Of a DNA stretch of 64,000 nucleotides, positions 1,510-27,947 are shown piece by piece. Source of the DNA: a virus. Under the pieces are notes generated by a model, which saw only the letters and a list, made by a program, of their open reading frames with translations, searched no databases and was not told the DNA's origin. How positions within the stretch are numbered: position 1 is the stretch's first letter; the number at the start of each line of letters is the position of its first letter. The DNA is taken from positions 1 through 64,000 of the IMG/VR virus record IMGVR_UViG_3300047554_000329; one strand, 5' to 3'. Made by a program: the position numbers and the translations under genes.

Positions 1510-1839
1510 TCAACCTACCAATTCTAAACTATACTTGCTAGCATCTGGTAACGTCTTCAGCAAGCTTGCAAGCCTAGGTGGAGCAATCTGTAGAAAGTTC
1601 TCTAGAGTGTCCGTCCAGTCATAGCCGTACTCTTTTTCTGGATACTGTGACCGTAGGTAACGTGCTTCTGCAAACGTTGTCTTATAAAGAATATTAGTAT
1701 AGTCAGTCTCAGTTCTACCGTCGTCATGCTTGGTCCAGACTACTGGGTTGATTGATAGAACATCTGCACTAACATACTCTTCGTGAAGTTCGTCATACAC
1801 CTCTTCGAAGTAGATGTTTAGGTCCCAGTCTTTAATCAT
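1510..1839 (-). CDS. Hypothetical protein
   Basis: ORF track; probable start MIKDWD overlapping upstream stop, GGAAGG RBS. Confidence 0.7.
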   Translation of the reverse strand: MIKDWDLNIYFEEVYDELHEEYVSADVLSINPVVWTKHDDGRTETDYTNILYKTTFAEARYLRSQYPEKEYGYDWTDTLENFLQIAPPRLASLLKTLPDASKYSLELVG

Positions 1840-2035
1840 TGTAGACACCTTCCTGAACATCCAAAGCAGTTCGCTGTAGAAGTTCGTCAAGATAGTTAGC
1901 GACTTGTCCTTGAACATCGTCAATGATACGTAGCCATAGTTCATCTGATAGCGGTAGTTCTACTAGGTCAGCGTCAAGGTAACTCTCAAAGTTCTCCTTG
2001 TCAATCTGCCATTCTTCAAACATTCTGGGGTCCAT
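1832..2035 (-). CDS. Hypothetical acidic protein
   Basis: ORF track; probable start MDPRMFEE. Confidence 0.65.
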   Translation of the reverse strand: MDPRMFEEWQIDKENFESYLDADLVELPLSDELWLRIIDDVQGQVANYLDELLQRTALDVQEGVYND

Positions 2036-2411
2036 AGATTTCTTCCATTTCTTCTCGTGTGTCAATCCAAATAGTGATGTAGCCATTGCCACGGCATTCA
2101 TCACAATCGATTATACCCTCACCCTCAGACATACAATCACATTCCTTGTCAATACTGACAGGAATTTCAATCAGGTCATCCCAAGGCTTTACAGTGATGT
2201 AGTATTGGATACGGTTTACTAGGTGGTAGCCAGATACGATAGAGACACCTTGGTCGCCATCCATCTCAGTCCAGATGTGCTTGTCATCCTGTTGTAGCAC
2301 ATACTGTAGTTCATCGCCATAGGTTTCGAACTGGTATTGCTCATCACCAGTAATCTCATTTAGGATTGGCTGGTATTTGTCAAACCATTCGTCATAGGGT
2401 AGTCTATACAA
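2016..2411 (-). CDS. Hypothetical protein with C-terminal CxC/CxxCxGxG zinc-binding motif
   Basis: ECDC...CDECRGNG. Confidence 0.7.
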   Translation of the reverse strand: MYRLPYDEWFDKYQPILNEITGDEQYQFETYGDELQYVLQQDDKHIWTEMDGDQGVSIVSGYHLVNRIQYYITVKPWDDLIEIPVSIDKECDCMSEGEGIIDCDECRGNGYITIWIDTREEMEEIYGPQNV

Positions 2412-2539
2412 TGCGTTGTCTCAATTCTTCTAGGGTTGCTTGGTCATACTCATTATACATCTCCCCTATGACATCTAATACCATGTTGATAGCAATGTCA
2501 TAGCCAAGGTCAATGGACCTGGTTTTCTCTCCTACTGTC

Positions 2540-2728
2540 TCACTCACCCTCTACCACCTTTGAGAAATCACTAATAGAATTAGAACGCATCAAGTCCATT
2601 AGGTCATAGACCGCTTGCTCTTCTGCTTCTTCAATGAACTCACTTTCAGGGATGTCTCTGCCTGTCATAAATCGCAGGGAATCCAAGTCATAGTCTAGTT
2701 CAATAATAAACTTTACAGACTTACTCAT
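2540..2728 (-). CDS. Hypothetical acidic protein
   Basis: ORF track; start MSKSVKF after GGAGG. Confidence 0.65.
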   Translation of the reverse strand: MSKSVKFIIELDYDLDSLRFMTGRDIPESEFIEEAEEQAVYDLMDLMRSNSISDFSKVVEGE

Positions 2729-2930
2729 CTTCTTCCTCCAACTCTTCTGGAGTGTAAACATTCTCAATGTCTACTGAATACCAATCGTAGGTAACACCTT
2801 GCTCGCTTGAGTAGGGTTTCCATTGCTCTGCTAGTTCTAGTGCTAGACGCTCTGCTTCGTCATAACTATCTGCCTCTACCCTGAACTCGTCGTCAAAGTG
2901 AAAGGATACTGTTACATCAAAAGTTGCCAT
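2721..2930 (-). CDS. Small acidic protein with VEADSYDEA motif
   Basis: ORF track, purine-rich RBS. Confidence 0.75.
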   Translation of the reverse strand: MATFDVTVSFHFDDEFRVEADSYDEAERLALELAEQWKPYSSEQGVTYDWYSVDIENVYTPEELEEEDE

Positions 2931-2967
2931 TGGGGTTCTCTTTCTCTAGGTTACTATTTTATCAGGT

Positions 2968-3498
2968 TTAGAAGTGAAAGTCAACAGGGACAAGGTAAAA
3001 GTTTTCACCCTCGTTACTGTCAATCTTGCTAAGGATGTGTGAAGCGTTAGTGCTATCAGCAATCATATCGAAGAACCAACTGTCGTGCCACCACTCACCC
3101 ATTTGAAATCTAAGCAAAGCATTTAGGGCGTAGAAGTGGTAGTCGTAGGACATAGTTCCACCATAGTTATCTAGTTTGTCAATGACTTTGGTTTCCTTGA
3201 CTTCGGCAAGGTATTTCTCATAGTCAGCAACACGCTGTTGAACACACTTGTCAATCTTTGCTCGGAAAGCGTTAGGGTCTTCCTTGTATGAGATAACCAT
3301 ATTGCTCTTGGTCTTGTAGGCTTCCTCAAAGTCGTCACCCTCAGCGGTATTCCAACGTCCTCCACCTACAACATACCAATCATACCAAGTAGACGGAGCG
3401 TCGTTACCAGACATATAACTCTCTAGGTTCATGTCTACGTTTCTTACTGCGTCATCTAGGTCTTCTGCTTCTACAGCAATCCAATGTAAAGTGTGCAT
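2968..3498 (-). CDS. Conserved phage hypothetical protein (WYDWYVVGGGRW ... VPVDFHF)
   Basis: ORF track, AGGAGA RBS, own promoter. Confidence 0.8.
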   Translation of the reverse strand: MHTLHWIAVEAEDLDDAVRNVDMNLESYMSGNDAPSTWYDWYVVGGGRWNTAEGDDFEEAYKTKSNMVISYKEDPNAFRAKIDKCVQQRVADYEKYLAEVKETKVIDKLDNYGGTMSYDYHFYALNALLRFQMGEWWHDSWFFDMIADSTNASHILSKIDSNEGENFYLVPVDFHF

Positions 3499-3638
3499 AT
3501 CTCTCCTTCTTGTTGTAGTTACAGTATACGATACCCCTCAGACATTTATTCTGGGAAATTTGGGGAAACATCGTAATGAATCGTAATAGAGAAATAATAT
3601 ATATAAAGATATATTATGTTAGGTGGGTCGGGCTCCCC

Positions 3639-3761
3639 CTACTTTTTGGGGCAGACCTTATGACCTATACGCTTGTAGTAGGACTTCCATACCTGACCAC
3701 ATTCTTTACACTGGTAGTAGTCGTAGTAGTCTTCACCTTTGATTTTCCACATTGGCTTCAT
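3639..3761 (-). CDS. 40-aa zinc-finger-like protein
   Basis: MKPMWKIKGEDYYDYYQCKECGQVWKSYYKRIGHKVCPKK*; below ORF-track cutoff; start overlaps upstream stop. Confidence 0.6.
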   Translation of the reverse strand: MKPMWKIKGEDYYDYYQCKECGQVWKSYYKRIGHKVCPKK

Positions 3762-3895
3762 TCGTCATCCTCTACAGGGGCGAACATCATTTGCATACGT
3801 CTAAACTCTTCATAACTAAGTTTATTTACAATGTTCCAGACACGCTCCATACGCTCTTTCTTTTCTTCAAACATTTCTTCTAGTGTTTGTTCCAT
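3758..3895 (-). CDS. 45-aa hypothetical protein
   Basis: MEQTLEEMFEEKKERMERVWNIVNKLSYEEFRRMQMMFAPVEDDE*. Confidence 0.55.
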   Translation of the reverse strand: MEQTLEEMFEEKKERMERVWNIVNKLSYEEFRRMQMMFAPVEDDE

Positions 3896-3996
3896 TCGTC
3901 CTTTGCTTTCTTGATAGTTTCAACGGCATTGGCAATAAGGGCTAATCCAAATACCGCCATTAGTAGAGGTAGAAAAATAAAGAATAGGATTTCCAT
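3880..3996 (-). CDS. 38-aa single-pass membrane protein
   Basis: MEILFLIFLPLLMAVFGLALIANAVETIKKAKDEWNKH*; TAATG coupling to upstream gene. Confidence 0.6.
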   Translation of the reverse strand: MEILFFIFLPLLMAVFGLALIANAVETIKKAKDEWNKH

Positions 3997-4100
3997 TACT
4001 TCCCCAATCCAAAGATGTGGTCAAGGTCGTGGGTGTGGTAGGCATTGCCAATCTTTTCTGGTCTGCCACAGGTTTTGCAAATGTTGTTGTCGTTACTCAT
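3996..4100 (-). CDS. 34-aa protein with CxxC and His residues
   Basis: MSNDNNICKTCGRPEKIGNAYHTHDLDHIFGLGK*. Confidence 0.5.
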   Translation of the reverse strand: MSNDNNICKTCGRPEKIGNAYHTHDLDHIFGLGK

Positions 4101-4293
4101 TCTCTTCGTCCTCGTCTTCCTCATCTTCTTCGTCTAGGGCTTCTACTTCGATAGAGTAAACTCCGTCATAGGTGATAGGGCTGGCGTAAGTTTCTCCCCA
4201 ACTTGTCCAAGCAAGTTGCTCTGCTGCTTCTTCGCTCTCTGCTTCAATCTCACCAGAGAACTCAATCATCATTTCTACTTGGTATCTAGGCAT
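4093..4293 (-). CDS. Very acidic small protein (IEAESEEAA motif)
   Basis: ORF track; start MPRYQVE after GAAAGGAAGG. Confidence 0.75.
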   Translation of the reverse strand: MPRYQVEMMIEFSGEIEAESEEAAEQLAWTSWGETYASPITYDGVYSIEVEALDEEDEEDEDEENE

Positions 4294-4403
4294 TTGCCTT
4301 CCTTTCCTTGTTGTTACTATTTTACATCTACCCTCCGACATTTATTTGGGGAAATCGTAAGGCTATCGTAAATTGATTGGGAGCTTGTAGCCCGACCCAT
4401 CGG

Positions 4404-4474
4404 CTCCCCACCAAGGATTCGAACCTCGATAGCCAGGACCAAAACCTGGAGTCTTGCCGTTAGACGAATGGGGA
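4404..4474 (-). tRNA. tRNA-Gln(TTG), CCA not fully encoded (CCG follows)
   Basis: TCCCCATTCGTCTAACGGCAAGACTCCAGGTTTTGGTCCTGGCTATCGAGGTTCGAATCCTTGGTGGGGAG: acceptor stem, CCAGG/CCTGG anticodon stem, GGTTCGAATCC T-arm. Confidence 0.93.
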
Positions 4475-4477
4475 GTG

Positions 4478-4506
4478 TGAGCAGTTTGAAATCATACTCA
4501 GGATTT
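4478..4506 (-). ncRNA. H-type pseudoknot copy 1
   Basis: AAAUC-C-UGAGUA-U-GAUUU-CAAAC-UGCUCA. Confidence 0.7.
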
Positions 4507-4511
4507 ATGGA

Positions 4512-5531
4512 CTAAGCCATTACAACCTGCTGGACAATCTTCATCAAGCGGTTTTTCTCTGCGTTGATTACAGGGTCAAAGCCAGAAGCACTTGCGTAGA
4601 TGTTTTCGTTGTCGCCACCACGAGCAGAGCGATACCAGTCTAGGCGTTCCGTCAATGCGTTGTAAGCACCCCAAGCAGTTCCGCTAATGGTGTCGTTGAA
4701 CTGACCACGATAGATTGACTGAAGCAGGTCTACCTTGCTGTCGTGCTTCTTGAATGAACCCTTAGCGTCACGCTCAGGAGCAGGGTAGGCAAGGTTGATG
4801 ATTTCTAGGAACTGGTTGTCAGTAACAGTCTTCTCAATCATCTCGTTAGCCATTTTGCTAAACTCGTCAATGTAAGCGTTAGCCAAGCCCAATGCTTCAC
4901 GAGCAACAGCAATCTTGCCTTCTGCGGTAGAAGTGTGACGGATTTTGAATGACTGCTTGCTAGCGTTCTTGCCCTTGAATGACGAGAGAGCAAGGTTTAG
5001 AGTGTTAGCACACACTACACGAACAGGGGTAATGGAAGCCTGAATAGCAATGCTTCCGTCGTGGCTAGTGTTGATTAGCAGGTAGTTGTCAATCTTGTCA
5101 GCAATACCCTTTGGGTCAAGAGTGATTGAGTTTTGAAGAGCGATAGAGCCAAATACCTGACGACCACCCTTGATTGAACCTGCGGTTTCCCAACGACCAC
5201 CGCCGTCTAGTAGGTTGTCACCAAACGAGAATAGGTCTTCGTTCTGGAGTGGAACATAGCGTTCACCAACAACACCAAGAATGTCGTTCTGGTCTTTGTT
5301 GAATGGGTTAGTGCGAGTAACGAAAGAGTAAGACTTGTCGCTAGCAAAACCTGCTGGGACTTCTACATCTTCAAGACGGACATTCCAGTTGTCTAGGTGA
5401 GCCAACTCTAGCATTTGCTGGGTGTTTACTTCTTCTTCGAATACAGTTCCTAGATTGTGCCACGCTGGTTGGCGTAGGCTAGCGAAGGTTGCTTCGCCTG
5501 TTGCTTCGTTGATTTCTAGTTCGTGAGCCAT
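4512..5531 (-). CDS. DUF932 / TIGR03299-type phage-plasmid protein
   Basis: AWHNLG, YVPLQN, WETAGSIKGGRQVF, LLINTSHDGS, TPVRVVCANTL, IRHT, GTAWGAYNALTE motifs. Confidence 0.88.
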   Translation of the reverse strand: MAHELEINEATGEATFASLRQPAWHNLGTVFEEEVNTQQMLELAHLDNWNVRLEDVEVPAGFASDKSYSFVTRTNPFNKDQNDILGVVGERYVPLQNEDLFSFGDNLLDGGGRWETAGSIKGGRQVFGSIALQNSITLDPKGIADKIDNYLLINTSHDGSIAIQASITPVRVVCANTLNLALSSFKGKNASKQSFKIRHTSTAEGKIAVAREALGLANAYIDEFSKMANEMIEKTVTDNQFLEIINLAYPAPERDAKGSFKKHDSKVDLLQSIYRGQFNDTISGTAWGAYNALTERLDWYRSARGGDNENIYASASGFDPVINAEKNRLMKIVQQVVMA

Positions 5532-5678
5532 AAGGCTTCCTTTCATTAGTGGTGGATTGTTGATAGTTCTATTATACAGACACCCACCGACATTGTAAAT
5601 AGTTTAGGGAAATATTTCGGGGAATCGTAACATTAACGTAATAAAGCTTAGTAGGAATGGAGCCCGACCCCCAAAGGG

Positions 5679-5706
5679 GACCAGTTTTACGTCATGGTCA
5701 GGACGT
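5679..5706 (-). ncRNA. H-type pseudoknot copy 2
   Basis: ACGUC-CU-GACCA-U-GACGU-AAAAC-UGGUC. Confidence 0.7.
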
Positions 5707-5716
5707 TCATAGCCCC

Positions 5717-6190
5717 CTATGAAATCACAGTGTAGTTGGAAATGTCAAAGTCACACTCTAGCACTTCGCTGTCGCTGTCGTAGGTGTCGAAGCGAACAAC
5801 ATCACAGTAGGCGTTGTCTGCTACTTCGTCAGGGTCTTTGTCGAATGGGACTTCAAACTCAACAGTAGAAACAATGTCATACTGAATGGTTACACGCTTG
5901 GTTAGCATTACATTGTCAAAGATGTCTGCAATCTTCTGAGCGTTCTCAATGGTGATGTCTTCATCAGAAATCATTTCCTTGAGTAGGTCAGTAAGAGCGT
6001 ATTCTGCCTTGCGATACTTGTCACGAGCGTTGGTTAGTTGAGTGTTGATAAAGTTGTTCTCGTTTTTGTTAGCATCTCGTTCAGCGGAAACGATAGACAA
6101 GTCATTCTCTAACTTACTAATCTTCTCGTTGAGTGCTTGTAGAACAGGGTGAGTGCTAGGGACAAATGTTCCTATGTTGATTTCTTCCAT
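5717..6190 (-). CDS. Hypothetical coiled-coil protein
   Basis: ORF track; start at MEEINIG downstream of the promoter at about 6219. Confidence 0.75.
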   Translation of the reverse strand: MEEINIGTFVPSTHPVLQALNEKISKLENDLSIVSAERDANKNENNFINTQLTNARDKYRKAEYALTDLLKEMISDEDITIENAQKIADIFDNVMLTKRVTIQYDIVSTVEFEVPFDKDPDEVADNAYCDVVRFDTYDSDSEVLECDFDISNYTVIS

Positions 6191-6241
6191 TGGGGCTTCT
6201 TTCTCTTGGTGTGGTTCTATTATAGCGTTAGGGTCAGACAT

Positions 6242-6442
6242 TTATCTGTCTTCCCATTCGGTTAGGTCTTCGTTGTTTAGGACAGCGTGAACAAAGTCAA
6301 ACTTGGCTCCGTCGTTTAGGTTGTCTAGTAGTTCCCATTGGTCTTCGTCTAGAGCGTCTACATCAAACATTAGAACCTGACTAACTCCGTAAGAACCATC
6401 AGTTTCAATCCACGCTCCGTAGCGTGATACATATTCTGCCAT
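6242..6442 (-). CDS. Small acidic hypothetical protein
   Basis: ORF track, GGAAAGG RBS, own promoter. Confidence 0.75.
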   Translation of the reverse strand: MAEYVSRYGAWIETDGSYGVSQVLMFDVDALDEDQWELLDNLNDGAKFDFVHAVLNNEDLTEWEDR

Positions 6443-6637
6443 TTCTTTCCTTTCCTTGTTACTACTATTATAAATAGAACCACGGACATTTATTTGGGGG
6501 AACTTAATGTAGTATCGTAAATGAAATAGCTATGGATAGCCCGACCCCAGGTAGCAAAAATCCCCCTGCTATTTACTAACAAGGGGATTGCTCTGGTAGC
6601 CATATAAGTTTCACTCTGCCACACCAGCCCAGAGTTA

Positions 6638-6667
6638 GAGCCTTTTAGACACTTGCTCAGGTGTTTA
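6638..6667 (-). ncRNA. H-type pseudoknot copy 3
   Basis: ACAC-CU-GAGC-AA-GUGU-CUAAAAG-GCUC. Confidence 0.6.
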
Positions 6668-6683
6668 GGCGTAAGCCTATGGA

Positions 6684-7121
6684 CTAGATTAGGTCTAGAA
6701 CGCTGTTGTAAGTGCTTGCGTTCACAGACTCTTGGTCAGTCAGTTTGAGTAGTTTGAGGGTCTTCTCCAACTGCTCTTTGTGCTGCTTTGCTTGCCAGCC
6801 ACCAACTTCTTGTGGTCGCTCTGGCTTGTCGCCTACCTTAGCAAGCAGACCCCTGCCAAGAACAACCTGAACTGTGTTGCGGTAGTCACTCGTCACAGAA
6901 AGGTTGTCGCTCTCAAACTTGAACTCATCATAAGCAACAAACTTGTTAGCGTTCTTGCCAATCAACTCAGCGACAGCCTTGCCATAAGCCTTGATGTCTT
7001 TGTTGAAGGTAGCGAGTAGACTAGGGTAGTCTTTCTCTGCCTTAGCGATTTCTGCCAACTTGTTCTCAATCATTTCGATAACTGTTGAAGTTGGGATTTT
7101 TACTGATACGGCTCTTGCCAT
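6684..7121 (-). CDS. Hypothetical protein
   Basis: ORF track; start MARAVSVK after AGGAG. Confidence 0.8.
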   Translation of the reverse strand: MARAVSVKIPTSTVIEMIENKLAEIAKAEKDYPSLLATFNKDIKAYGKAVAELIGKNANKFVAYDEFKFESDNLSVTSDYRNTVQVVLGRGLLAKVGDKPERPQEVGGWQAKQHKEQLEKTLKLLKLTDQESVNASTYNSVLDLI

Positions 7122-7187
7122 TTTATTTCTCCTTGTTTGGGGTTGTAACTTTATTATAGTGGGGACTACGGACATTTATTTGTGTGG

Positions 7188-7214
7188 TGGGCAGTTTATA
7201 GTGATACCCAGCAC
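7188..7214 (-). ncRNA. H-type pseudoknot copy 4
   Basis: GUG-C-UGGGUA-U-CAC-UAUAAAC-UGCCCA. Confidence 0.6.
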
Positions 7215-7220
7215 ATTTGG

Positions 7221-7373
7221 TTACTTGATAGTAGACCAGCGAGGCTGACCTGCTACATCAAGACGAACTCGGAACGAGCCGTTCTTGTTAGCCACAACTT
7301 CCTGAACAATGCCAGAAACGCCTGACTTCTGAGTGGTGAACTGTGAGCCAACAGTAGGGATAGTGATTGCCAT
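7221..7373 (-). CDS. 50-aa SH3/KOW-like beta protein
   Basis: MAITIPTVGSQFTTQKSGVSGIVQEVVANKNGSFRVRLDVAGQPRWSTIK*; promoter with TTGATA -35; below ORF cutoff. Confidence 0.7.
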   Translation of the reverse strand: MAITIPTVGSQFTTQKSGVSGIVQEVVANKNGSFRVRLDVAGQPRWSTIK

Positions 7374-8128
7374 TTTTGCTTCTTTCATTAGTTATTTGAT
7401 ACCAACAGGTTTGTTGATACCTCTATTATAGCAAGGGGGTCAGACATTTATCAACTCTACTTGTAATAGAATGTAACATCTTTAGTTTTTATTGGGGAGT
7501 GAGTTTTGTCTCTCCCTTGCTACAGTTCTATTATACGGATACCCACGGACATTTATTTTGGGAAATGGGGGATTTTTATCTTAATCGTAAAAAGTTTTTT
7601 GGTTCAGCTGCCCGACCCTTTCGGGTAGCCTATGAGGAATACAAAAAGTTCTTAGCAACTAGCCAAGTGCGATACATAACTTCATCGTCTTTACCAGAGA
7701 TGTCCCACTCCAATAGTCTGCCTATCAGGTGTGAGTTGCGGTCTTCCAAGTCTGCTAAGACTAAGGCGTATGCCTGTTCTAGTTCTTCGTTCATTAGTAT
7801 CCTGCTCTCTCTAGCATTGATAGTAGTTGGTCTACTTGCTCTGGGGTTAGTTCTTCGATTGCCTGTTCGTTGATTACATTCTCAAACATTTCTCTCCCTA
7901 CATAAACTCAAATGGGTCTCGGTCTTGAAAGATTTCTTCCCAATCTTCCAAAGAGTATTCTTCTGGGTTAGCAAAATAGTCTGCTAATGCTTCACGGATT
8001 TCTTGTGCTTGTTCATCGTTCATAACTTTATTATACATTGGGGGTCAGACATTTATTTCGGGAGGTTTTTAATAGTCTACGTAAAGGAGCTTTGCCTTGC
8101 CTGGATGCCCGACCCCTTTCGGGGTAGG

Positions 8129-8605
8129 CTAATCTTCCTCGTGGTCAAAATATTTGTTTGAGCATTCTACACACATACCAAGTTCTTCTTGGTGAACAAT
8201 AGCCACAACTGGCTCTCCACACTTTTCACAAGGCTTGTAGTGGCTAAAGTGAAATAGCCCTGTTCCTGTTGGTTCATCGTGGCTCCAGCGTCTAGCGGTA
8301 AGGATGTTGTTCTCAAGATACCACTCAATACGGAAGTCACCATTCAAGGCTAATGCTCCGTGTAGTTTATCCATAGTTGTCCATTTGAAGCCTGCCTTAC
8401 GCTGCCAGCCCATTCCTGAGCCGTCAATAAGGATGTGGTCGTTGTCGTCAATGTTGTTGTCTTTCTGCCATTGACCTAGAACATAGAATACAACCTCTTT
8501 CTGCCATTCGTAGCAGTCAAGACATTCTTCGCTAGGTGTTCCGTCTTCATTCTCGCATAGGCAGTCAGTAGTAACTTCAGCGATTAGTTTTTGTGCAGTA
8601 GTCAT
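8129..8605 (-). CDS. Hypothetical protein with two Cys clusters and SHDEPTG motif
   Basis: ORF track; start MTTAQKL after GAAAGAGG. Confidence 0.75.
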   Translation of the reverse strand: MTTAQKLIAEVTTDCLCENEDGTPSEECLDCYEWQKEVVFYVLGQWQKDNNIDDNDHILIDGSGMGWQRKAGFKWTTMDKLHGALALNGDFRIEWYLENNILTARRWSHDEPTGTGLFHFSHYKPCEKCGEPVVAIVHQEELGMCVECSNKYFDHEED

Positions 8606-8779
8606 TGTCCTCTTTCTTGTTGCTTTTAGTTTATCAGTAGCCACAGACATTTTAGTCTAGGTAAGTTTCAAACGAATACAGGTCTTCATCGTGCATTTGG
8701 CAGTAAGCGAAGTAACCTTTAGATACCGCTTCGAAACTAACAACAGACTGGCATCGGTTGCATCGGTAGTATTTAGCCA

Positions 8780-8950
8780 TTAGTAACTCTCCTTGATAGC
8801 CTTTAGTTTGTTTGCTTGACGGCTACCCTTGCGGTTTTCAGGGGTAACGATGTTGTGTTTAGTTAGTAGCATAGACTCAAACAAGACCTTAGCGTGAGCC
8901 TTGCGAGTTGCTTCGTTTAGTTTGCCTAGTGGCTTCGTTCTTTTCTTCAT
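8780..8950 (-). CDS. Small basic protein, probably leaderless
   Basis: ATG 6 nt after TATAAT. Confidence 0.65.
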   Translation of the reverse strand: MKKRTKPLGKLNEATRKAHAKVLFESMLLTKHNIVTPENRKGSRQANKLKAIKESY

Positions 8951-9051
8951 AGTCTTATTATACATCTAGGTTCAGACATTTATTTTGGGAGATTTTTAAT
9001 GTGTAACGTAAAGGGGTTTGGGCTGAGGAGCCCGACCCCTGGGGGTAGCGA

Positions 9052-9573
9052 TTACTCGCCACTCCCTCTCACTACAATCCAGATTAGGGCTTGCATTGCT
9101 CTAGGGGTCATGCCGTGTTTGGTAGCCACAGCGGTTACAGCGTCTGCCATTTCCTTATACTGAGACTGAGTAGGTGTCTTTTTCTCAATGCCCAATGCTC
9201 GCAACATCCAAACATCAATCACGACTGCGTTCTCGTTACCAGCAATAGCCTTAGCAAAGTTGTTAGTCTTTAGACCTTTGAGAGCGTCGAATCCTAGTGT
9301 TAGGGCTTTTTCTGCCATACGGATGTTGTTACCCAACACTCCCTTTAGTTCGTGACCAAGTGAAAACTTCACTGCATTACTAACATTACGAGACCAACGC
9401 TCACGAGGGCTAAAAGCAGATACAACAGTTGCTCCAATCTCAAGGGTAGTGTTTAGGTTAGTTGCTACTTCACGAGCAACGGTCTCAGCGTCTAGATACC
9501 ACTTAGTGGCTTGCTCAACCTGACCAAAGGTTGCTTTCTTAGCGATGTTTGAGTAAATGTCAATGTAGTTCAT
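9052..9573 (-). CDS. Conserved phage protein, possibly DNA-glycosylase (HhH)-like fold
   Basis: WY...SAFSPRERWSRNV...GLKTNNF...VVIDVWMLR...MQALIW pattern; start MNYIDIY after GAAAGG. Confidence 0.6.
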   Translation of the reverse strand: MNYIDIYSNIAKKATFGQVEQATKWYLDAETVAREVATNLNTTLEIGATVVSAFSPRERWSRNVSNAVKFSLGHELKGVLGNNIRMAEKALTLGFDALKGLKTNNFAKAIAGNENAVVIDVWMLRALGIEKKTPTQSQYKEMADAVTAVATKHGMTPRAMQALIWIVVRGSGE

Positions 9574-9801
9574 TGGATTCCTTTCGTTGATAAGATTAGT
9601 ATACATTGGGGGTGGGACATTTATTATCGTAACGTAAAAGAGCTTTTCCCAGGCTGCCCGACCCCCAGCACACCCTAGAAGGGTGGCTGAAGTTCCTCGT
9701 TCTCTCTCCAAAGTTTAGTAACTAGCCTAACAAGGATGATGTTCACTGCCGTAAGAAAAACCACGCCAGCAAGACAAACCCAAATAAGAAAACTAAGCCA
9801 T

Positions 9802-9981
9802 TCATTCATCTCTGCCTCCCCAGCAAGCGTCTACAAACTTTTCGGTAATAAAGCGTTCGTTGTCCTCACGAAACATCTGAGCAAAATCTTCAACCAAGTT
9901 GTCGAAAGTTGTTGCCTCAAAATAGTCAAGGTAGGAGTTTAGGATTGCTGCGGTAGACACATAGTCTTTGCGTGTCATCAT
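9802..9981 (-). CDS. Small conserved phage protein (MTRKDY...DNERF...F..AC)
   Basis: ORF track, trimmed start. Confidence 0.7.
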   Translation of the reverse strand: MMTRKDYVSTAAILNSYLDYFEATTFDNLVEDFAQMFREDNERFITEKFVDACWGGRDE

Positions 9982-10495
9982 TAGTTTTGCTCTCTTTCTG
10001 ATACTTCGATTAGTTTTAGTCTGTCTTTGTCTGATAGCATAGCCCAAGCATAGCCAAAAGCATAAGCGTAGGCTTCCGAGTTGCTAAAGCCTCTGGTGGT
10101 CATTATGTTTTTGATTACTTCGCTGGTTCTGAAGATTAGTTTTTCTTCCATTAGTTTTACCTTTCGTTGTGATTACAGTTTACCAAGACCCACAGACATT
10201 TATTCTGTAGGCTCTTGCCACTCAACGCCATTTACCCAAAAGCGAGCAATACGACCTTTGTAGTATTGGTCTGATAGGTATGGCGTTTGGTCTACATCTA
10301 GAGGACCTTCAATCTCAAAGGTAACTCCATTGTCCATTTCGATTACATAGATGTTCATTGTGTCTCGCATAGTCTTCCTTTCGTGTAGTTACATTTTAGC
10401 AGTAGCCTCAGACATTTATTCTGGGGAAAAATCTGGGACATTTTTAATGGGCTACGTAAACGAGCTTGCGAGGTCGCCCGACCGCCCTGGCTGCC

Positions 10496-10657
10496 TCAGT
10501 CGAAGCAGTTGGGAGCGTCTAGGAACTCGGCATAAGCCTCTTGCAAGGCTTGCTGGCGTTCAGCCCTGTCTTGGGCTGCCAACTCCTCTGGGGAGTATTC
10601 CTCCTCCTCAAAGAAGTAGTCCTCCGAGATGTCGCCCCAGCCGTAGTCGTCTTCCAT
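10496..10657 (-). CDS. Very acidic 53-aa protein
   Basis: MEDDYGWGDISEDYFFEEEEY...; GAAAGG RBS, own promoter. Confidence 0.7.
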   Translation of the reverse strand: MEDDYGWGDISEDYFFEEEEYSPEELAAQDRAERQQALQEAYAEFLDAPNCFD

Positions 10658-10918
10658 AAGTTTTCCTTTCGTTGATAATGCAAGTGTAACAAGACCCACA
10701 GACATTTTGGGGAAAAATCTTAAATCTATTTAATAACGTTTTGGTAACGATGGGGGTCGGGCTCGCAGCTGCTAGGCAGGGCGAACGCAGAGGTTACAGA
10801 CAAACATACTCTTGGCAACTAGCCTAACGAGGTAGGCATCAGCAGGGCGATTGCACAACTCGCAGAGGTGTTGCTTACGCTCTTCGGCGGTTAGTTTGAT
10901 GGCTGGCATAGGGTCTCC

Positions 10919-11164
10919 TTAGTTAGCGTGTGGGTAGTTTGGTGATAGGTCAAGGGTGTTGTAGGTTGCTTCATTCTTGTTCAGCAGGGTCAGGCGATAG
11001 ACGATGCCAGAGTCAGAGAAACGGCGAGCAACCTCAAAGTGTTCACACAAGCCAAAGTTTTTGATGTTCTTGCCGTCTGCGTAGGCTTGGGCAAAGGTGG
11101 GGTAGGTCTGGATGCTCTGGCTCACAAAGAGCAGGTTTGGGCTAAGGGTCAAGGGGAACTCCAA
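10919..11164 (-). CDS. Hypothetical protein
   Basis: ORF track, promoter at about 11184. Confidence 0.55.
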   Translation of the reverse strand: MEFPLTLSPNLLFVSQSIQTYPTFAQAYADGKNIKNFGLCEHFEVARRFSDSGIVYRLTLLNKNEATYNTLDLSPNYPHAN

Positions 11165-11288
11165 TCAATCAACTTACGAAGTAAGTCTAACAGCCACCTC
11201 AGACATTTATTATTATTTTGGGAAACATTTCGGGACATTTTTAATGCGTTACGTAAACCGTTATCATTTCGTTATGAAGCCCGACCCC

Positions 11289-11318
11289 TGTGGATAACTT
11301 TCGCTACCCTGTGGATAA
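11289..11318 (-). promoter_or_regulatory. Two perfect DnaA boxes 21 bp apart
   Basis: TGTGGATAA at 11289 and 11310, directly after GCCCGACCC. Confidence 0.8.
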
Positions 11319-11683
11319 CTATCGTGTCTTAGTGATTAGCAAGTTGAGGTAAGCCTGTCGAATCGCTTCAGGCAGTTGCTTATAGGTTTCGCTTTCGGCA
11401 AGGGTAGTTGCTCCCTTGTGCCAGATAATAGGGTGTAGTTCATCCATAAAAGCTTTTTCGCTTTTGGTCATTCTTGGCTTTGGCATTAGATAGCCTCCTC
11501 AGTAGCGTTGGCGTAGATAGAAGCGATAGAGGCAATAGCCTCCTCATACTCTTCCCAAGTATCAAACTTTAGAACAATCATTAGTTTACCTTTCGTTAGT
11601 TACAGAATACCATTAGGGTCAGACATTTATTTGCTAGGCTCACCTTGCGGATTATTTGCTAGGCTCTTGCGTGACCCTAAAAC

Positions 11684-11827
11684 TTACTTGTTTAGTTTGT
11701 CAAACTGAAACTGAAGCCAGTGAACCTCGTCATAGTCTTCAGGCGTGTCAATGCCTAGGGCGATTAGTTTGCCTAGGTTTTCAATGGCTAGGTCTAGGGC
11801 TAGTTTTGCGTCAAGTGCTTTCTTCAT
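11684..11827 (-). CDS. 47-aa hypothetical protein
   Basis: MKKALDAKLALDLAIENLGKLIALGIDTPEDYDEVHWLQFQFDKLNK*; GAAGGA RBS, own promoter. Confidence 0.6.
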   Translation of the reverse strand: MKKALDAKLALDLAIENLGKLIALGIDTPEDYDEVHWLQFQFDKLNK

Positions 11828-11945
11828 TTATTCCTTCTTTCTATCTACCTATAAGGTATCACGAACCACGGACATTTATTATTGTTTTGATAGGCTTTTA
11901 GCCCTATTGTTACGCATTGTTACCAAAATGTTACCAAACTTGGGG

Positions 11946-11991
11946 AACTAGATGTAGTGGTCTTAAGGTAAATGGCTACTAGATGTTGTGG
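11946..11991. promoter_or_regulatory. Tandem NrdR boxes
   Basis: ACTAGATGTAGTG (11947) and ACTAGATGTTGTG (11978), 31 bp apart; fit the CwAnATnTwGTG NrdR consensus. Confidence 0.75.
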
Positions 11992-12221
11992 AGCCCGACC
12001 CACGCTGTCGGGCGTGTCGCCAGGGTAGAGCTAGAACGGTGGCTTATTCCGTTCCAACTCCTCCTCTAGTGACTTGATAACCATTGACTTGTACCAAGCA
12101 TAGGTAGCCCAGCCCATTGACAGGAATAGAATCCAAGAAAGTGTAGGTGACATTTTTTCCTTTACTGATTGACTAGAACGAATAGAGCGATTAGAAGAAG
12201 ACTACCAATGACCACAGACAT

Positions 12222-12380
12222 TTAGATTGTTCCCCCTAGTTTCTCAATGTGACGAACAAGAGCAAGCATAAAATCTAGTTCTGCCATAGACAAGTAGTCT
12301 AGGTTTTCGGCTTCACGAACGAGCGAGTTTAGTTTTAGTTTTGCTTGCTTCAGGGTCAAGTCTGCTAGTGCTGTTTCCAT
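12222..12380 (-). CDS. Small helical hypothetical protein
   Basis: ORF track; start METALAD after GAAAGG. Confidence 0.65.
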   Translation of the reverse strand: METALADLTLKQAKLKLNSLVREAENLDYLSMAELDFMLALVRHIEKLGGTI

Positions 12381-12631
12381 TTTGTTACCTTTCGATTGGT
12401 TTGAGTTTAGCATAGGGGACGGACATTTTACTTTAGGATTTCCCAAGACTGCAGAAAGCCTTGAGCAAAAAGTTTCTTTGCCCAACGCAAGTTAGCAGGA
12501 GTATTAGGAATGATAGCGGAGCGACCCTCTGGGGTGATGATTTCGATTTGCATACCTGCAGTCTATCAGACAGGTCAGACATTTTGGGAAAATATTTGGG
12601 ACTTTTTTAATTCGTTACGTAACTGTTATAT

Positions 12632-12647
12632 TCGAAATTCTGTTCGA
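12632..12647. promoter_or_regulatory. Actinobacterial LexA SOS box (1 mismatch)
   Basis: TCGAAA-TTCT-GTTCGA vs TCGAAC-N4-GTTCGA; 1 nt before GCCCGACCC. Confidence 0.7.
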
Positions 12648-12707
12648 AGCCCGACCCCAAAAAGCTGCAAATGTCAAGTCCGACACGCCACTATTTTAGA
12701 CAAAAGA

Positions 12708-12737
12708 AAAACCCCAAGGTAGCGAACCAAGGGGTTT
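12708..12737. terminator. Bidirectional intrinsic terminator
   Basis: AAACCCC...GGGGTTT stem flanked by A and T runs. Confidence 0.7.
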
Positions 12738-13249
12738 CTTTTTGAAAGAATAGAGAACAAGTTTCCGAATTGCAGTCACGGAACCTATCTAGCGAATTGC
12801 TCAAAGTCAATCATTGCTCAGAGGATACATTTCATTCTGACTAGTATCTCATCCACGGCTAACCATAGTTTGTTGTTTAACATTTCTTTTTGTTTCTCTA
12901 TTTAATTTTCAATACTTTTAGTATAGCATCTTGGACTGACATCTGTCAAATCCGACACGCCGATTAGCGGATGAAGATTGCTTCTACGCTGTAGAAGTCA
13001 TCTCCTTCATAGCCACGGAAGATTGCTTCCGCTTGCTTGAAATCAACTACTAGAGATTCAACAATCTCCTTAGTCTCTTTTACCATTACATTCACTTGAT
13101 ATTTCATCATTTGATTTTTCCTATCTCTTAGATTCTTACTTATTTACTTTTTCTTTATACCCTTATTATAGGCATAAGCTCAGACAAAAGTCAAATCGAC
13201 ACGCCGTATTTTGGGGAAATTTTTTATAGCGTTATAAAAAACGTTATAT

Positions 13250-13265
13250 TCGAACAGATTTTCGA
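13250..13265. promoter_or_regulatory. Actinobacterial LexA SOS box (1 mismatch)
   Basis: TCGAAC-AGAT-TTTCGA; 1 nt before GCCCGACCC. Confidence 0.7.
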
Positions 13266-14122
13266 AGCCCGACCCACGCTGTCGGGCGTGTCGCCCTGGT
13301 AGCCCTATGGGATTAGACCTGCTGCCCATAGCAATAGGCTAACACTGCCTAGCACTAGCACACTGGCGAGGGTAACCATTATGACAATGGTCAAGTCATC
13401 TACTAGGTTACGCATTAGTTACACCATAGGCAGTTGATGTCGTCACAAGGGTTTTCTTCTGAGTAGTCTTCGTTTTCGTTCATTTGGTTTCTCCTTCTTG
13501 ATTACAGTTTACTTGATAGGTCAGACATTTATCGGTTGCGAACAAGGTCACGAACCTTGTCGATAAACCAACCTAGGGCTGGAGCGATAAGCACAAAGCC
13601 TAAGCCTAGGGCTACTACTGTTAGGATTGCTGTTACTACTGACATTTTCTTTTCCTTTGCTTCCTTGTAGTTACAGTCTATACCACTGGGCAGACATTTT
13701 GGGGGATTTTAACGTATATCTTATGTAACAATTTGGTAACGAAGCCCGACCCCAAAATCCTGGATTTGTCAAGTCCAAGCTTGGGCGTGTCGCAGGGTAT
13801 CTAGTGAGTGTCTAGCCAGTGCATTACAAAAGCAACAGCACCAACACCTAGAGCAGTCACGCCTAAGATTATCCAGACAAATAGTTGAAACATTTCCCAG
13901 TTCATTAGTTACCTACCTTTTCGTTGATACGGATAGCAGAACCTGCCTTGATTACGCCTACTAGAGCAGTAGCCTTCTTCATTGCTTGCTCACCATAGTA
14001 AGCAGACACTACTACCTTGAACGCTTCACCGTTCATTAGGTAACCGCCTACTTGCCATTCAGTCATTCTGTTCATTAGTTTACCTTTCTTGTTGTTATTA
14101 GTTTAGCAGATACCACAGACAT

Positions 14123-14293
14123 TTAGTCACAAAAGTAGCAACCGAATGAGTCATCGACAATAGCACCACACTGGTCACAGTCAGGGTATCGCTCTGGAGT
14201 CATTGCATCAGCGAGGGCTATGTTATCACGCTCAATCTTGTCAGCGTTCAACTGTGCTACTAGGTTTGCTACATACTCTAGGTCTACTGTCAT
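14123..14293 (-). CDS. Small protein with C-terminal zinc ribbon
   Basis: CDQC...CYFC; start MTVDLEY. Confidence 0.7.
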   Translation of the reverse strand: MTVDLEYVANLVAQLNADKIERDNIALADAMTPERYPDCDQCGAIVDDSFGCYFCD

Positions 14294-14475
14294 TTTTCTG
14301 TCCTTTGCTTCCTTGTGATTACAGTCTATACCATAGCACAGACATTTATTACCAAACACGCCAAATAAATGTAACAATTTCGGGGAAAAATCGTTATAGT
14401 TCTTAGCTTGACAAATCTCAAAATTTGGGTCGGGCATTTTTTTGTGGGAATGTCAAGCGACACGCCCAAACAAAG

Positions 14476-14640
14476 TTAGTTTTTGTGAGTAACTACTTTG
14501 TTGAAAGTGTAGTTTGCATAACCACTCTTTGACTTTACAGCAACACTCGTTACTGTAGGTTCACACTTGCAAGTTCCGTTTAGAGTGTGACCACTCATTA
14601 GGTCTACTACTGAACCGTTTTCGATTTTGTTTACTAGCAT
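14476..14640 (-). CDS. Small hypothetical protein
   Basis: ORF track; start MLVNKIE; first gene downstream of the promoter at about 14706. Confidence 0.6.
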   Translation of the reverse strand: MLVNKIENGSVVDLMSGHTLNGTCKCEPTVTSVAVKSKSGYANYTFNKVVTHKN

Positions 14641-14996
14641 TTTATTTCTCATTTCTCTTAGATTCTTACTTTTTATTTTCACTATTAACTTTTCTTCTTG
14701 CTATTAGTATACAGACCCCCACGGACATTATGCAAGTTTTAGCTGTAACATTAGGTAACATTTCTATAACGGATGGGTGCATAGTGTGCTCACTAAAAAA
14801 GAGGGGTGCCGTATAGGATACGTGTATCATTCATCTTTACAAAATATTCAGATTTTTGCCAATTTGAAAATTTTTTCAGATTTTCAGATTTTGGGGGTAT
14901 CAGATGTGTACTTCTGCTCCATACCACATAGCAATAGCTGCATATAGACAAATAAAGCCTATGCCTGATACGATAAGTGCAAAGACTTCAGCCCAA

Positions 14997-15227
14997 TCAA
15001 TTTTCTTTTTCATTCATTCTCTCTTTCGCATATGCGTGGCGGTATGTTTTATGAAAAGCTTTAGCATATATATGCATTTCTACAATATCTGGAAACACAC
15101 CTAGGTCTTTCTTGATAGCAGCTAAACATTTTTCGTGGATATAATCCTTTGAAAGTTCGTTGTAATAACGTCTATATTGTTTAAATTTTCGAAGGTACAT
15201 AAAAGCGAAGCTTTCTTGATTCACCAA
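14997..15227 (-). CDS. Hypothetical protein
   Basis: ORF track. Confidence 0.55.
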   Translation of the reverse strand: MVNQESFAFMYLRKFKQYRRYYNELSKDYIHEKCLAAIKKDLGVFPDIVEMHIYAKAFHKTYRHAYAKERMNEKEN

Positions 15228-15427
15228 TGTCCTTCAGGACACTTAGCTTGAACAAGGGTAGTCTTAAGTCTCATAAAACAACCACATTTGCGACATCTTT
15301 GTAAATTTTTGGCAAACCAGGGACACGTGTTACAAATTGCTAGACGAGCTTCTACTTGTTCTCTGTCTGCTTTTTGCTGGTTATGGTCAAAAAGGTCTAA
15401 AAATTCGACATCGCCGTTATCTTTCAT
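15221..15427 (-). CDS. Cys-rich zinc-binding protein (DUF6171-like)
   Basis: RLAICNTCP...CRKCGCFM..KT....CPEGHW. Confidence 0.7.
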   Translation of the reverse strand: MKDNGDVEFLDLFDHNQQKADREQVEARLAICNTCPWFAKNLQRCRKCGCFMRLKTTLVQAKCPEGHW

Positions 15428-15568
15428 AAGATATATTATAACACATATGGGGCTGTTAAGCCCTGGTGGTGTTTGGTTTACTCTATTTTCACGCCGAAAA
15501 ACTTACGCCGAGCTTTTTACCGCCGTATTTATATTCAGAAAACTAAATAATCATATATAATTGAGAGT

Positions 15569-15841
15569 ATGACAATGTTAGAATCAGTGCTTGCTATTAC
15601 TATTAGTATTTCAACAATCATAACGACTATTGGTTTAGGAGTTAAATGGTTAGTCAAACACTACTTCGAAGAAATCAAGAAAGAAATCAAACCTAATAGT
15701 GGTTCTTCTATGAAAGACCAAGTAACTAGATTAGAATCAAGAACTGAAGCTGTAGAAGAAAAAATAGACAAACTATATGATTTGTTAATTACGCAAGGTG
15801 TAAGAACAGTTTCATCAAGAACTAAAAAATCCGACGATTGA
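15569..15841 (+). CDS. Membrane protein, DUF2746-like (holin/lysis accessory candidate)
   Basis: N-terminal TM helix followed by PNSGSSMKDQVTRLE and coiled coil; ATG 7 nt after TATAAT. Confidence 0.65.
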   Translation: MTMLESVLAITISISTIITTIGLGVKWLVKHYFEEIKKEIKPNSGSSMKDQVTRLESRTEAVEEKIDKLYDLLITQGVRTVSSRTKKSDD

Positions 15842-16014
15842 TTATTATTATATATTTAATATATATCTTATAGTTTAATATATTTATATATTATATATAT
15901 CATCTATCTATCTATTAATATATATAGTACCACACGCCGAACGTTTGTCAAGCCCTTTTTTGCATATTTTATGATAACTTTTAGATAACGATTTTATTCA
16001 CAGAGTTATCCACA
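15841..16014. other. AT-rich tract next to DnaA boxes; origin- or terminus-like region
   Basis: About 85 nt almost pure A/T (15841-15926), then TTATTCACA (15994) and TTATCCACA (16006). Confidence 0.45.
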
Positions 16015-25928: not shown

Positions 25929-27947
25929 ATGTCGGAATTTTTCTCATTTACCCTACCGAATGACTTTGTAGAAAAGTACAAAACATCGGAATCACCCTTT
26001 GGATTCGTGGATGCAGGAGGTAACTCACTTGGAGAAATTACTTTCGTTCGCACCTACTCACGAGTCAAAGAAGACGGAACTAAAGAACGCTGGTACGAAG
26101 TAGTACGCAGAGTTATTGAAGGTATGTATTCTGTCCAGAAAAATCATGCAAAGGAGAACCGTCTCCCATGGAATGACTACAAGGCACAGAAGTCAGCACA
26201 GGAAGCATTCGACAGAATGTTTACCCTAAAGTGGACACCACCAGGTCGTGGTATGTGGACATTCGGTACTCCACTAACAATGGAAAAGCGTAACTCAGCT
26301 GCTCTTCAGAACTGTGCAATGGTATCAACCAAAGACTTAGATAAGAATGACCCTGGTGCTCTGTTTGCTTGGGTAATGGATGCCCTGATGCTAGGCATCG
26401 GTGTAGGCTTTGACACTCTTGGTGCAGACAAGAACTTTCCAATTTATGCACCAGTAGAGCCAGCAGTAACTTACGAGATTCCAGATACTCGTGAAGGATG
26501 GGTAGAGTCGCTACGACTTCTTCTAAATTCATTCCTTCGACCAAACCAAGCCATTCAGGAGTTTGACTATTCGCTAATTCGTCCTGAAGGTGCTCCTATC
26601 AAGGGGTTTGGTGGAACAGCATCTGGACCAGCACCACTAATCAAAGTACATAATCAGCTGCGTGAAGTTATCGGTGGACGTGCAGGAGAAAAGCTAGACT
26701 CTCGTGCTATTGTTGACATCGTTAACCTAGTTGGAACTTGCGTTGTTGCAGGTAACGTTAGACGTTCAGCTACCTTGGCACTTGGTGGTGCAGAAGATGA
26801 GGAATTCATTAACCTAAAGAACTACGAGAAGTTCCCAGACCGTGCTCCATGGGCATGGATGTCGAACAACTCTATTTCTGCAAAGGTTGGAATGGATTAC
26901 ACTCAGTATGTAGACCGCATTGCAGACAACGGAGAGCCAGGATTTATCTGGCTAGATGTTGCTCGTAACTATGGTCGTCTAGCAGACCCTGCAGATGGCA
27001 AGGATTATCGTGTTATGGGATTCAACCCATGTGCAGAGCAGCCACTAGAGTCATACGAGCTATGTACTCTAGTTGAGGTACACCTAAACCGTCACGAGAG
27101 CAAGGAAGACTTCCTACGCACTCTGAAGTTTGCCTACCTCTACGGAAAGACTGTAACTCTTCTTCCAACTCACTGGCAGCAGACAAACGGTATCATGCAG
27201 CGTAACCGTCGTATTGGAACATCGCTAACTGGTATTGCATCATTTGCTGACGCACATGGTCTACCTGCAACTCGTGAGTGGATGGACGAGGGTTATAACA
27301 AGATTCGCTTCTATGACAAGAAGTACTCAGAATGGCTATGTGTTCGTGAATCAATTCGTGTAACCACAGTTAAGCCATCTGGCTCAGTATCAATCTTGTC
27401 TGGAGCAACTCCAGGTGTCCATTGGATGCCAGGAGGTAAGTTCTACCTACGTGCTATCCGTTTTGGAAACACAGACCCAATGCTACACCTATTTAAGGCT
27501 GCAGGGTACAAGGTAGAGCCAGCACTATACTCTGACAACACTTCGGTAGTATACTTCCCAATCTCTTCAGGCATTAAGCGTTCGGAGAAGGATGTAACCA
27601 TTTTTGAGAAGATGGCACTTGCTGCTACTGCTCAGAAGTATTGGTCAGACAATGGTGTATCAGTAACCCTGTCGTTTGACAAGGAAACTGAAAAGCAGCA
27701 CGTTGCCTCAGTGCTTAATATGTACGAAGGTCAGCTAAAGGCTGTATCATTCCTTCCAATGGGAAATGACGTTTATGAGCAACAGCCATATTCTGAAATC
27801 ACAGAAGAAGAATACGACTACTACATTGGTAGAATTGCTAAGATTGACTTCTCAGCAATCTATGATGGAGTTACAAATCTAGAAGCAGAAGGCGAAGCCT
27901 ACTGTACCACAGACTACTGTGAGATTAAAATTCCAGACAAGAACTAG
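25929..27947 (+). CDS. nrdJ: Class II (B12-dependent, monomeric RTPR-type) ribonucleotide reductase
   Basis: PPGRG, NCAM, VVAGNVRRSA, GFNPCAEQ, TTVKPSG, C-terminal CxxxxC. Confidence 0.93.
   Translation: MSEFFSFTLPNDFVEKYKTSESPFGFVDAGGNSLGEITFVRTYSRVKEDGTKERWYEVVRRVIEGMYSVQKNHAKENRLPWNDYKAQKSAQEAFDRMFTLKWTPPGRGMWTFGTPLTMEKRNSAALQNCAMVSTKDLDKNDPGALFAWVMDALMLGIGVGFDTLGADKNFPIYAPVEPAVTYEIPDTREGWVESLRLLLNSFLRPNQAIQEFDYSLIRPEGAPIKGFGGTASGPAPLIKVHNQLREVIGGRAGEKLDSRAIVDIVNLVGTCVVAGNVRRSATLALGGAEDEEFINLKNYEKFPDRAPWAWMSNNSISAKVGMDYTQYVDRIADNGEPGFIWLDVARNYGRLADPADGKDYRVMGFNPCAEQPLESYELCTLVEVHLNRHESKEDFLRTLKFAYLYGKTVTLLPTHWQQTNGIMQRNRRIGTSLTGIASFADAHGLPATREWMDEGYNKIRFYDKKYSEWLCVRESIRVTTVKPSGSVSILSGATPGVHWMPGGKFYLRAIRFGNTDPMLHLFKAAGYKVEPALYSDNTSVVYFPISSGIKRSEKDVTIFEKMALAATAQKYWSDNGVSVTLSFDKETEKQHVASVLNMYEGQLKAVSFLPMGNDVYEQQPYSEITEEEYDYYIGRIAKIDFSAIYDGVTNLEAEGEAYCTTDYCEIKIPDKN

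Follow-up and report, generated by a model that had tools for sequence, protein, structure and literature searches.

The stretch of DNA analysed here, referred to below as the window, comprises positions 1-64,000 of a complete viral genome of 92,924 bp (IMG/VR). Bases 1-16,000 were found to form an early-type region of approximately 50 small genes on the minus strand, after which the plus strand carries structural genes, a class II ribonucleotide reductase (RNR) gene (nrdJ) and others. The early region is made up of repeated intergenic modules. Along the direction of transcription, these consist of a hairpin containing GGGTCGGGC, a variable slot, TTACG or GTAAC repeats, TCCCCAAA, TAAATGTCYG-N10, a -10 hexamer, a ribosome-binding site and a small gene. 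In the module situated ahead of a 47-aa ORF, the variable slot is occupied by a pair of NrdR boxes. The features of this locus, together with nrdJ, are as follows:

12031..12153, minus strand, upstream 40-aa ORF, whose transcript would read into the hairpin and the boxes
11993..12013, minus strand, anchor hairpin GCCCGAC-CCACGCT-GTCGGGC at the 3' end of the upstream 40-aa gene, containing GCCCGACCC
11976..11991, NrdR box 2 (distal), CTACTAGATGTTGTGG, with six of six core positions
11961..11975, linker of 15 bp, TCTTAAGGTAAATGG, canonical in length, its letters not conserved
11945..11960, NrdR box 1 (promoter-proximal), GAACTAGATGTAGTGG, with C4, A6, A8, T9, T11 and G13 all present and a C4-G13 interval of 75% A+T
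11907..11946, minus strand, GTAAC direct repeats (GTTAC on the plus strand at 11909, 11919 and 11930) plus TTGGGGA, between the boxes and the promoter
11853..11874, minus strand, predicted early promoter TGTCCG (11874-11869)-N10-TACCTT (11858-11853), with a start site near 11846
11684..11827, minus strand, 47-aa ORF with a strong ribosome-binding site, GAAAGAAGGA
11627..11666, minus strand, GAGCCTAGCAAATAA x2 element, 3' of the 47-aa gene
25929..27947, plus strand, nrdJ, class II ribonucleotide reductase (Pfam RNR_Alpha, RNR-II_ins_dom)

Repeated promoter-stem-loop cassettes ahead of many small genes, with shuffling of modules among relatives, are a feature of the early regions of T4-type phages. 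Compared with those cassettes, the modules described here are similar in the repetition of an early promoter and stem-loop and in their signs of shuffling, but differ in sequence and promoter type and in having a slot that takes an NrdR pair or DnaA boxes. Two other modules were found to hold palindromes in their slots, TTCGAAATTCTGTTCGAA (12632-12649) and TTCGAACAGATTTTCGAA (13250-13267), each with one mismatch from what we take to be the actinobacterial/Gram-positive LexA box.

The motif GCCCGACCC is present in 15 copies in the window, one of which begins at 11993 within the anchor hairpin, 2 nt past the second 13-mer of the pair, as had been stated in the original prediction made for this site. 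The hairpin possesses no U-tract and a terminator scan of 11400-12600 was empty. Using the DUF7178 protein (9052-9711) as query, 73 related viral loci were obtained; GCCCGACCC was absent from 73 of 73, and is therefore unusable for tracing the module among relatives. A scan of 11400-12600 for sigma-70 consensus promoters likewise gave none, and for this reason the promoter at 11853..11874 is a predicted one, with a motif common to other early modules and an orthologous promoter in the related loci L028 and L095. On neither strand did consensus scanning and inspection reveal a convincing promoter inside the boxes or next to them. The box centres are located ~107 and ~138 bp 5' of the predicted start site.

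None of the 47-aa, 40-aa and 55-aa proteins had a Pfam or PHROG match. A homolog of the 47-aa protein was found in L028 (56% identity, E = 1e-11), and freshwater contigs carry the ORF in identical or nearly identical form. Proteins of ~45 aa with a CxxC...CxxC zinc-ribbon pattern and no family match are recurrent in the early region and in relatives, examples being the gene at 10772-10909 (minus strand) and the L028 gene that follows the orthologous promoter. The GAGCCTAGCAAATAA x2 element is a direct repeat with a short hairpin-like spacer, the second copy of which overlaps the next promoter. It is kept in nine relatives (L028, L039, L040, L056, L062, L078, L085, L088 and L095), where it is situated just 3' of an early promoter.

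NrdR operators have been described as two 16-bp boxes, each with six conserved positions (C4, A6, A8, T9, T11 and G13), a distance of 8 bp from C4 to G13 and at least 63% A+T between them (PMC13584703), separated by a linker of 15-16 bp, with 14-17 bp tolerated and 24-27 bp representing an alternative phase (PMC12051234). The original prediction had described two 13-mers 31 bp apart at the established NrdR spacing, upstream of a 47-aa gene. This description holds, the sites being present and only their positions having been off by one: on the plus strand ACTAGATGTAGTG lies at 11947-11959 and ACTAGATGTTGTG at 11978-11990, the start-to-start distance of 31 bp corresponding to the 15-bp linker, and the 47-aa ORF (11827..11684) follows on the minus strand. 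The whole operator element is 47 bp in length (11945-11991). All 12 of the 12 core positions across both boxes were identified, the gap from C4 to G13 is 8 bp in each, and the intervals TAGATGTA and TAGATGTT are each 75% A+T. The published synthetic consensus box, ACACAACATCTAGTGG, agrees in reverse complement with box 2 at 14 of 16 positions. The pair therefore conforms to all published sequence and spacing rules for an NrdR operator, while its location is not the promoter of an RNR operon. NrdR is present in 77% of bacterial genomes, and NrdR proteins of different phyla bind heterologous operators, as well as the synthetic consensus, about as well as their own (PMC13584703). By analogy with this cross-species binding to near-identical boxes, NrdR loaded with dATP and ATP is likely to bind the pair.

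In the whole 92,924-bp genome, the 13-mer occurs twice at up to one mismatch, both occurrences being in the pair, and a rule-based scan found only one full-core pair with an allowed linker, along with a weak second pair (11 of 12 core positions) at 83261. Lone full-core boxes numbered 28 in the genome, which is the chance rate, so that a full-core pair at a linker of 15-16 bp is expected ~0.02 times per genome. A chance origin was ruled out on this basis (one pair in 92.9 kb against ~0.02 expected, with the 13-mer present twice in the genome). At two mismatches the 13-mer count (6 versus 4.1 expected) is not informative. An RNA element at the site was also rejected, there being no Rfam match, no tRNA and a minus-strand fold of 11935-12040 no better than that of shuffled sequences (z = 0.76).

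Species-representative bacterial genomes were searched with the pattern ACTAGATGTWGTG-N16-20-ACTAGATGTWGTG. The exact 13-mer pair was identified in 15 genomes from several phyla, two being Microbacteriaceae, with linkers of 15-17 bp. An RNR gene flanking the pair (NrdJ, NrdB or ATP-cone) was confirmed with Pfam at 8 of the 15 loci. Among these, one Paenibacillus and one gammaproteobacterial MAG have NrdJ beside the pair, Gulosibacter (Microbacteriaceae), one Opitutales MAG and a Parcubacteria MAG have the RNR small chain, and one further MAG has an ATP-cone protein. At five more bacterial loci the neighbour is a putative RNR gene, based on ORF N-termini or ORF similarity; N-termini of the adjacent ORF were identical or near-identical for L016, L018, L022 and L024-L026, and for L019 the adjacent ORF was merely similar. 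Actinobacterial loci L014 and L016 have the same 13-mer pair at an RNR gene. The two exceptions among the 15 are Longispora and a Chloroflexia MAG. Judged from this gene context, the exact pair in bacterial cells is an RNR operator. In Longispora albida (L015, 1626-1669) the gene beside the exact pair encodes a phage-type integrase, not an RNR, and the pair may be part of a prophage.

The phage site resembles the bacterial RNR operators (S. coelicolor nrdRJ and nrdAB; E. coli nrdAB, nrdHIEF and nrdDG; L. monocytogenes) in having two 16-bp, partly palindromic boxes with C4/A6/A8/T9/T11/G13, an A/T-rich centre and a 15-bp linker. Its 13-mer pair is identical to pairs found 5' of RNR genes in Paenibacillus, Microbacteriaceae, Verrucomicrobia, Gammaproteobacteria and Parcubacteria. 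Unlike these operators, it is situated away from an RNR gene in the early region of a lytic-type phage, its boxes lie at the above distances from the predicted start site with no promoter overlap, and its regulator has to be supplied by the host.

The nearest RNR gene to the pair is nrdJ, 14 kb away and on the opposite strand. No NrdR pair was found 5' of nrdJ, where the best relaxed match (4+5 of 12) is inside the preceding ORF. Control of nrdJ by an NrdR pair was consequently ruled out, and the earlier statements that no such box precedes nrdJ and that the site does not regulate the phage RNR are both borne out. Furthermore, the phage was not found to encode an NrdR of its own, with no ATP-cone and no match to TIGR00244 even at E = 10, meaning that the site would be readable only by host NrdR.

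With regard to this host, a WhiB-family gene was identified on the plus strand at genome positions 77527-77700, beyond the window (44.9 bits, above the Pfam cut-off), a family which to our knowledge is confined to Actinobacteria and their phages. The portal protein has 47% identity to portals of large Streptomyces phages, and distant relatives of the DUF7178 protein are found mainly in Mycobacterium, Gordonia and Microbacterium phages. These three gene products suggest that the host is probably an actinobacterium. A megablast of 9000-15000 against an isolate phage collection gave no match, and the sequence occurs in freshwater metagenomes of several studies.

Among the related loci, L095 (56% identity) was found to possess an orthologous module that reads GGGCTATATGTAGTAT-15-GTACTATATATAGATT, CCCCAG, GTAAC repeats and ATGTCCGTGGTCTCGATTATAAT. 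Between the window and L095, none of the 12 core positions differ, as against 13 of the 20 non-core box positions (Fisher p = 2e-4), and 10 of the 15 linker positions are changed. In L095 this cassette drives no ORF and the GAGCCTAGCAAATAA x2 element comes directly after it. The homologous cassette of L046, ACCCTAGATCTAGTGC-15-GCACTAGGTCTTGTGG, is likewise followed by GTAAC repeats, as is the pair in L095, and drives the DUF7178 gene. The window and L095 both have 133 nt between the distal box and the -10, and L046 has 135 nt. As the cassettes are homologous, common descent, and not constraint, may account for this equal spacing.

Locus L028 is the closest available relative (84% identity) and retains the orthologous promoter and hairpin, with the slot taken up by a DnaA box and TTACG repeats. 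Its homolog of the 47-aa gene is situated elsewhere, behind a plain promoter with no boxes. In L039 and L040, the promoter ahead of the GAGCCTAGCAAATAA element has two DnaA boxes. Compared across these loci, the upstream slot of the cassette is exchangeable, holding either an NrdR pair or one or two DnaA boxes, depending on the phage. As the cassette drives other genes in relatives and the L028 homolog lacks boxes, the pair can be assigned to the promoter cassette and not to the gene. The link to the small gene that was originally proposed is accordingly upheld insofar as the cassette drives the 47-aa gene here, and is corrected insofar as the association is with the cassette, which precedes the DUF7178 gene in L046 and no ORF in L095.

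NrdR pairs were also found in a gene-poor region adjoining a DnaA-box cluster in L028, L063, L075 and L095, and one of these pairs directs a promoter into the cluster. Within the pair at L095:19458, L063:12516 and L075:10432 lies TGGACA-N17-TATAGT, whose -35 falls in the linker and whose -10 falls in the second box, an arrangement that is a classical repressor layout. A further pair, at L095:4562-4609, overlaps the -35 of a TATAAT promoter and ends 9 nt before TATAAT, which itself lies 9 nt ahead of the ATG of a small membrane-protein gene, so that the mRNA would be nearly leaderless. Nearly leaderless mRNAs are typical of Actinobacteria. Up to four NrdR pairs are present within 20 kb in L095. 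In 1.25 Mb of family sequence, ten full-core pairs were found at linkers of 15-16 bp against two at the other 29 linkers (5-35), with ~0.13 full-core pairs per linker in shuffled family sequence.

Perfect DnaA boxes (TTATCCACA) were identified six times against ~1 expected, at 310-351 (plus strand), 11289-11318 (minus strand) and 16006 (plus strand), those at 11289 and 11310 being 650 bp from the NrdR pair. The three perfect boxes at 310-351 are homologous to the DnaA region of relatives that also holds NrdR pairs, and may represent an origin region; no NrdR boxes were found at this cluster in the window.

Natural variation at the locus was investigated by comparing, over 11300-12600, contigs from four runs (four studies) of freshwater or estuarine origin. 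The X4 contig (393 nt), with which X5 and X10 are consistent, differs from the window at 12 of the 47 operator positions and at none of the 12 core positions (p = 0.016). One change is at position 10 of box 1, four are in the linker and seven are in box 2, at positions 1, 2, 3, 5, 10 and 14 plus the flank. The variant box 2 reads ACCCCAGATTTTGGGG, with its core intact, and resembles the S. coelicolor nrdRJ boxes listed in PMC13584703. The anchor hairpin of the X4 contig has several indels, so that this adjacent element is less well preserved than the operator core. In an estuarine contig of run X12, position 11934 is joined to 12032 via 38 unrelated letters, with the pair and the anchor hairpin gone, and the site therefore displays a presence/absence polymorphism in nature.

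The original prediction had made conservation of the pair at homologous loci its test, and the outcome supports it, all core positions being kept both by the L095 module and by the freshwater variants. With 12 of 12 retained while other positions vary, the core positions are, on this comparative evidence, under selection. In combination with the published rules for NrdR operators, this makes it very probable that 11945-11991 is a functional NrdR-binding site kept by selection.

The occurrence of the pair was also surveyed among viruses. Ten viral contigs contained the exact pattern, six of them as intergenic pairs with linkers of 13-16 bp, the neighbours of which were a pyrimidine-dimer glycosylase, terminase, portal and unknowns, with RNR at none. 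The other four matches (L003, L004, L007 and L010) were rejected as operators, being coding or tandem repeats. A degenerate full-pair pattern with a 15-bp linker matched at least 112 viral contigs (L101-L279), a number in which A/T-rich contigs inflate chance matches. Among the matches listed, only 1 of 122 ORFs within 400 bp of a pair was an RNR, with PcfJ, antirepressors, a gp5.9-like protein and a methyltransferase among the others. A variable-gap scan placed 41 of 83 pairs at 15-16 bp and 11 at 26 bp, with four or fewer at any other length, among the matches listed. This histogram is the published NrdR helical-phase signature (PMC12051234). A literature search found no published description of NrdR sites in phage genomes. 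Orphan NrdR operators in phages thus appear to be an unpublished phenomenon, of which the present site is a well-documented new instance.

The reading that we favour, with a probability of roughly 0.5, is that the pair is an operator for host NrdR which would act in cis on early transcription of the cassette according to dATP/ATP state. A host NrdR tetramer loaded with dATP and ATP would bind both boxes and bend the DNA sharply. Bound NrdR would most likely lower transcription of the 47-aa gene and the GAGCCTAGCAAATAA element, possibly through interference with a factor bound at the upstream repeats, or through a block to polymerases arriving from the upstream gene. As phage DNA synthesis drains the pool and dATP falls relative to ATP, NrdR would be released and the unit expressed, and the element would thereby couple an early transcription unit to dNTP or replication state. 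In vivo binding, the direction of the effect and the mechanism at such a distance are the inferred parts of this reading. Cis control is favoured by the fixed place of the pair in a promoter cassette, the repressor geometry of its sister pairs and the exchange of the slot with DnaA boxes, and the distance from the promoter suggests anti-activation or a read-through block instead of simple occlusion. In lytic infection of S. pneumoniae the host NrdR regulon is strongly induced or derepressed (PMC6755750), which supports release of NrdR from DNA during phage replication. Against cis control, the boxes are ~86 bp 5' of the predicted -10, which is well beyond the polymerase footprint and unlike most RNR operators, and the promoter is only a predicted one. 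The L028 promoter without a pair and the X12 allele additionally indicate that the pair is dispensable.

The same distance would suit a decoy, which we consider unlikely. The pair would then control no phage gene, and replicating copies would titrate NrdR and derepress host RNR, so that dNTP supply would rise with phage copy number. A near-consensus site outside the polymerase footprint, without promoter constraints, is consistent with this, as are the multiple pairs of relatives such as L095, the lack of conservation of the gene 3' of the cassette and the rise of the host NrdR regulon in lytically infected S. pneumoniae (PMC6755750). The genome described here has a single pair, however, and its place within the promoter cassette is fixed. 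In addition, other pairs of the family overlap promoters in classical repressor geometry, and with the phage nrdJ outside NrdR control the need for host RNR is less obvious.

The polymorphism at the X12 joint and the orthologous promoter of the closest relative, which has no pair, would also be expected of a passenger or relic without present function, acquired when the locus recombined with another cassette or with an nrd promoter of host or phage origin. Alternatively, the site could belong to a phage protein other than NrdR, given the many small unassigned proteins encoded in the early region, among them those of the CxxC zinc-ribbon type. This explanation, in either form, appears improbable, somewhat more so than a decoy: the core has been kept while neighbouring positions, the linker and the anchor hairpin changed, the NrdR spacing signature is evident in the family and across viral contigs, and the phage encodes no NrdR-like protein. 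Least probable of all is a replication-linked or architectural role, in which bending by NrdR would mark or modulate origin firing or cassette recombination instead of mRNA output; the pairs beside the gene-poor DnaA-box cluster of four relatives (one with its promoter aimed at the cluster), the DnaA boxes in the orthologous slot of L028, L039 and L040 and the perfect boxes at 11289 and 11310 fit such a role, but the homologous cluster at 310-351 is without NrdR boxes and ordinary early transcription units surround the pair at 11945.

Cis control by host NrdR can be extended to the family in a more tentative proposal, which we regard as doubtful as a whole. Early and origin-proximal promoters would be built from cassettes with interchangeable sensors of host replication state (an NrdR operator or DnaA boxes), the NrdR version would serve as a dNTP-drain timer that switches its unit on once dATP drops, and orphan NrdR operators would be a common, unpublished route by which phages access host nucleotide status.

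Sites for host regulators that the phage does not itself encode have been described in phage control regions before, namely CtrA sites in phages of Alphaproteobacteria (PMC9437464), PhoB boxes in cyanophages (PMC10976474) and LexA boxes in GIL01 (PMC4551915). Such sites apparently serve to read host physiology, and they recur in unrelated phage lineages, as NrdR pairs do. The same description applies here, as the sites are selected and situated in a phage control region, NrdR pairs are enriched at NrdR spacing family-wide and no phage NrdR is present. The present case differs in its sensor, NrdR, which responds to the dATP/ATP ratio, and in consisting of one pair with no dense array.

The literature treats NrdR as a repressor dedicated to RNR genes, and here an operator of textbook quality is found at a non-RNR early promoter. 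What the present case adds is population-level evidence of selection on the operator, the swap of an NrdR pair for DnaA boxes in one promoter slot, and a likely actinobacterial host, for which S. coelicolor NrdR reagents are available. The phage probably reads or manipulates the dNTP state of its host. A selected operator, along with more than 100 further viral contigs in which pairs with the NrdR spacing signature almost never flank an RNR gene, suggests that phages routinely use the host dATP/ATP sensor. If this is true, nucleotide status would join SOS, phosphate and cell cycle among the host signals read by phages.
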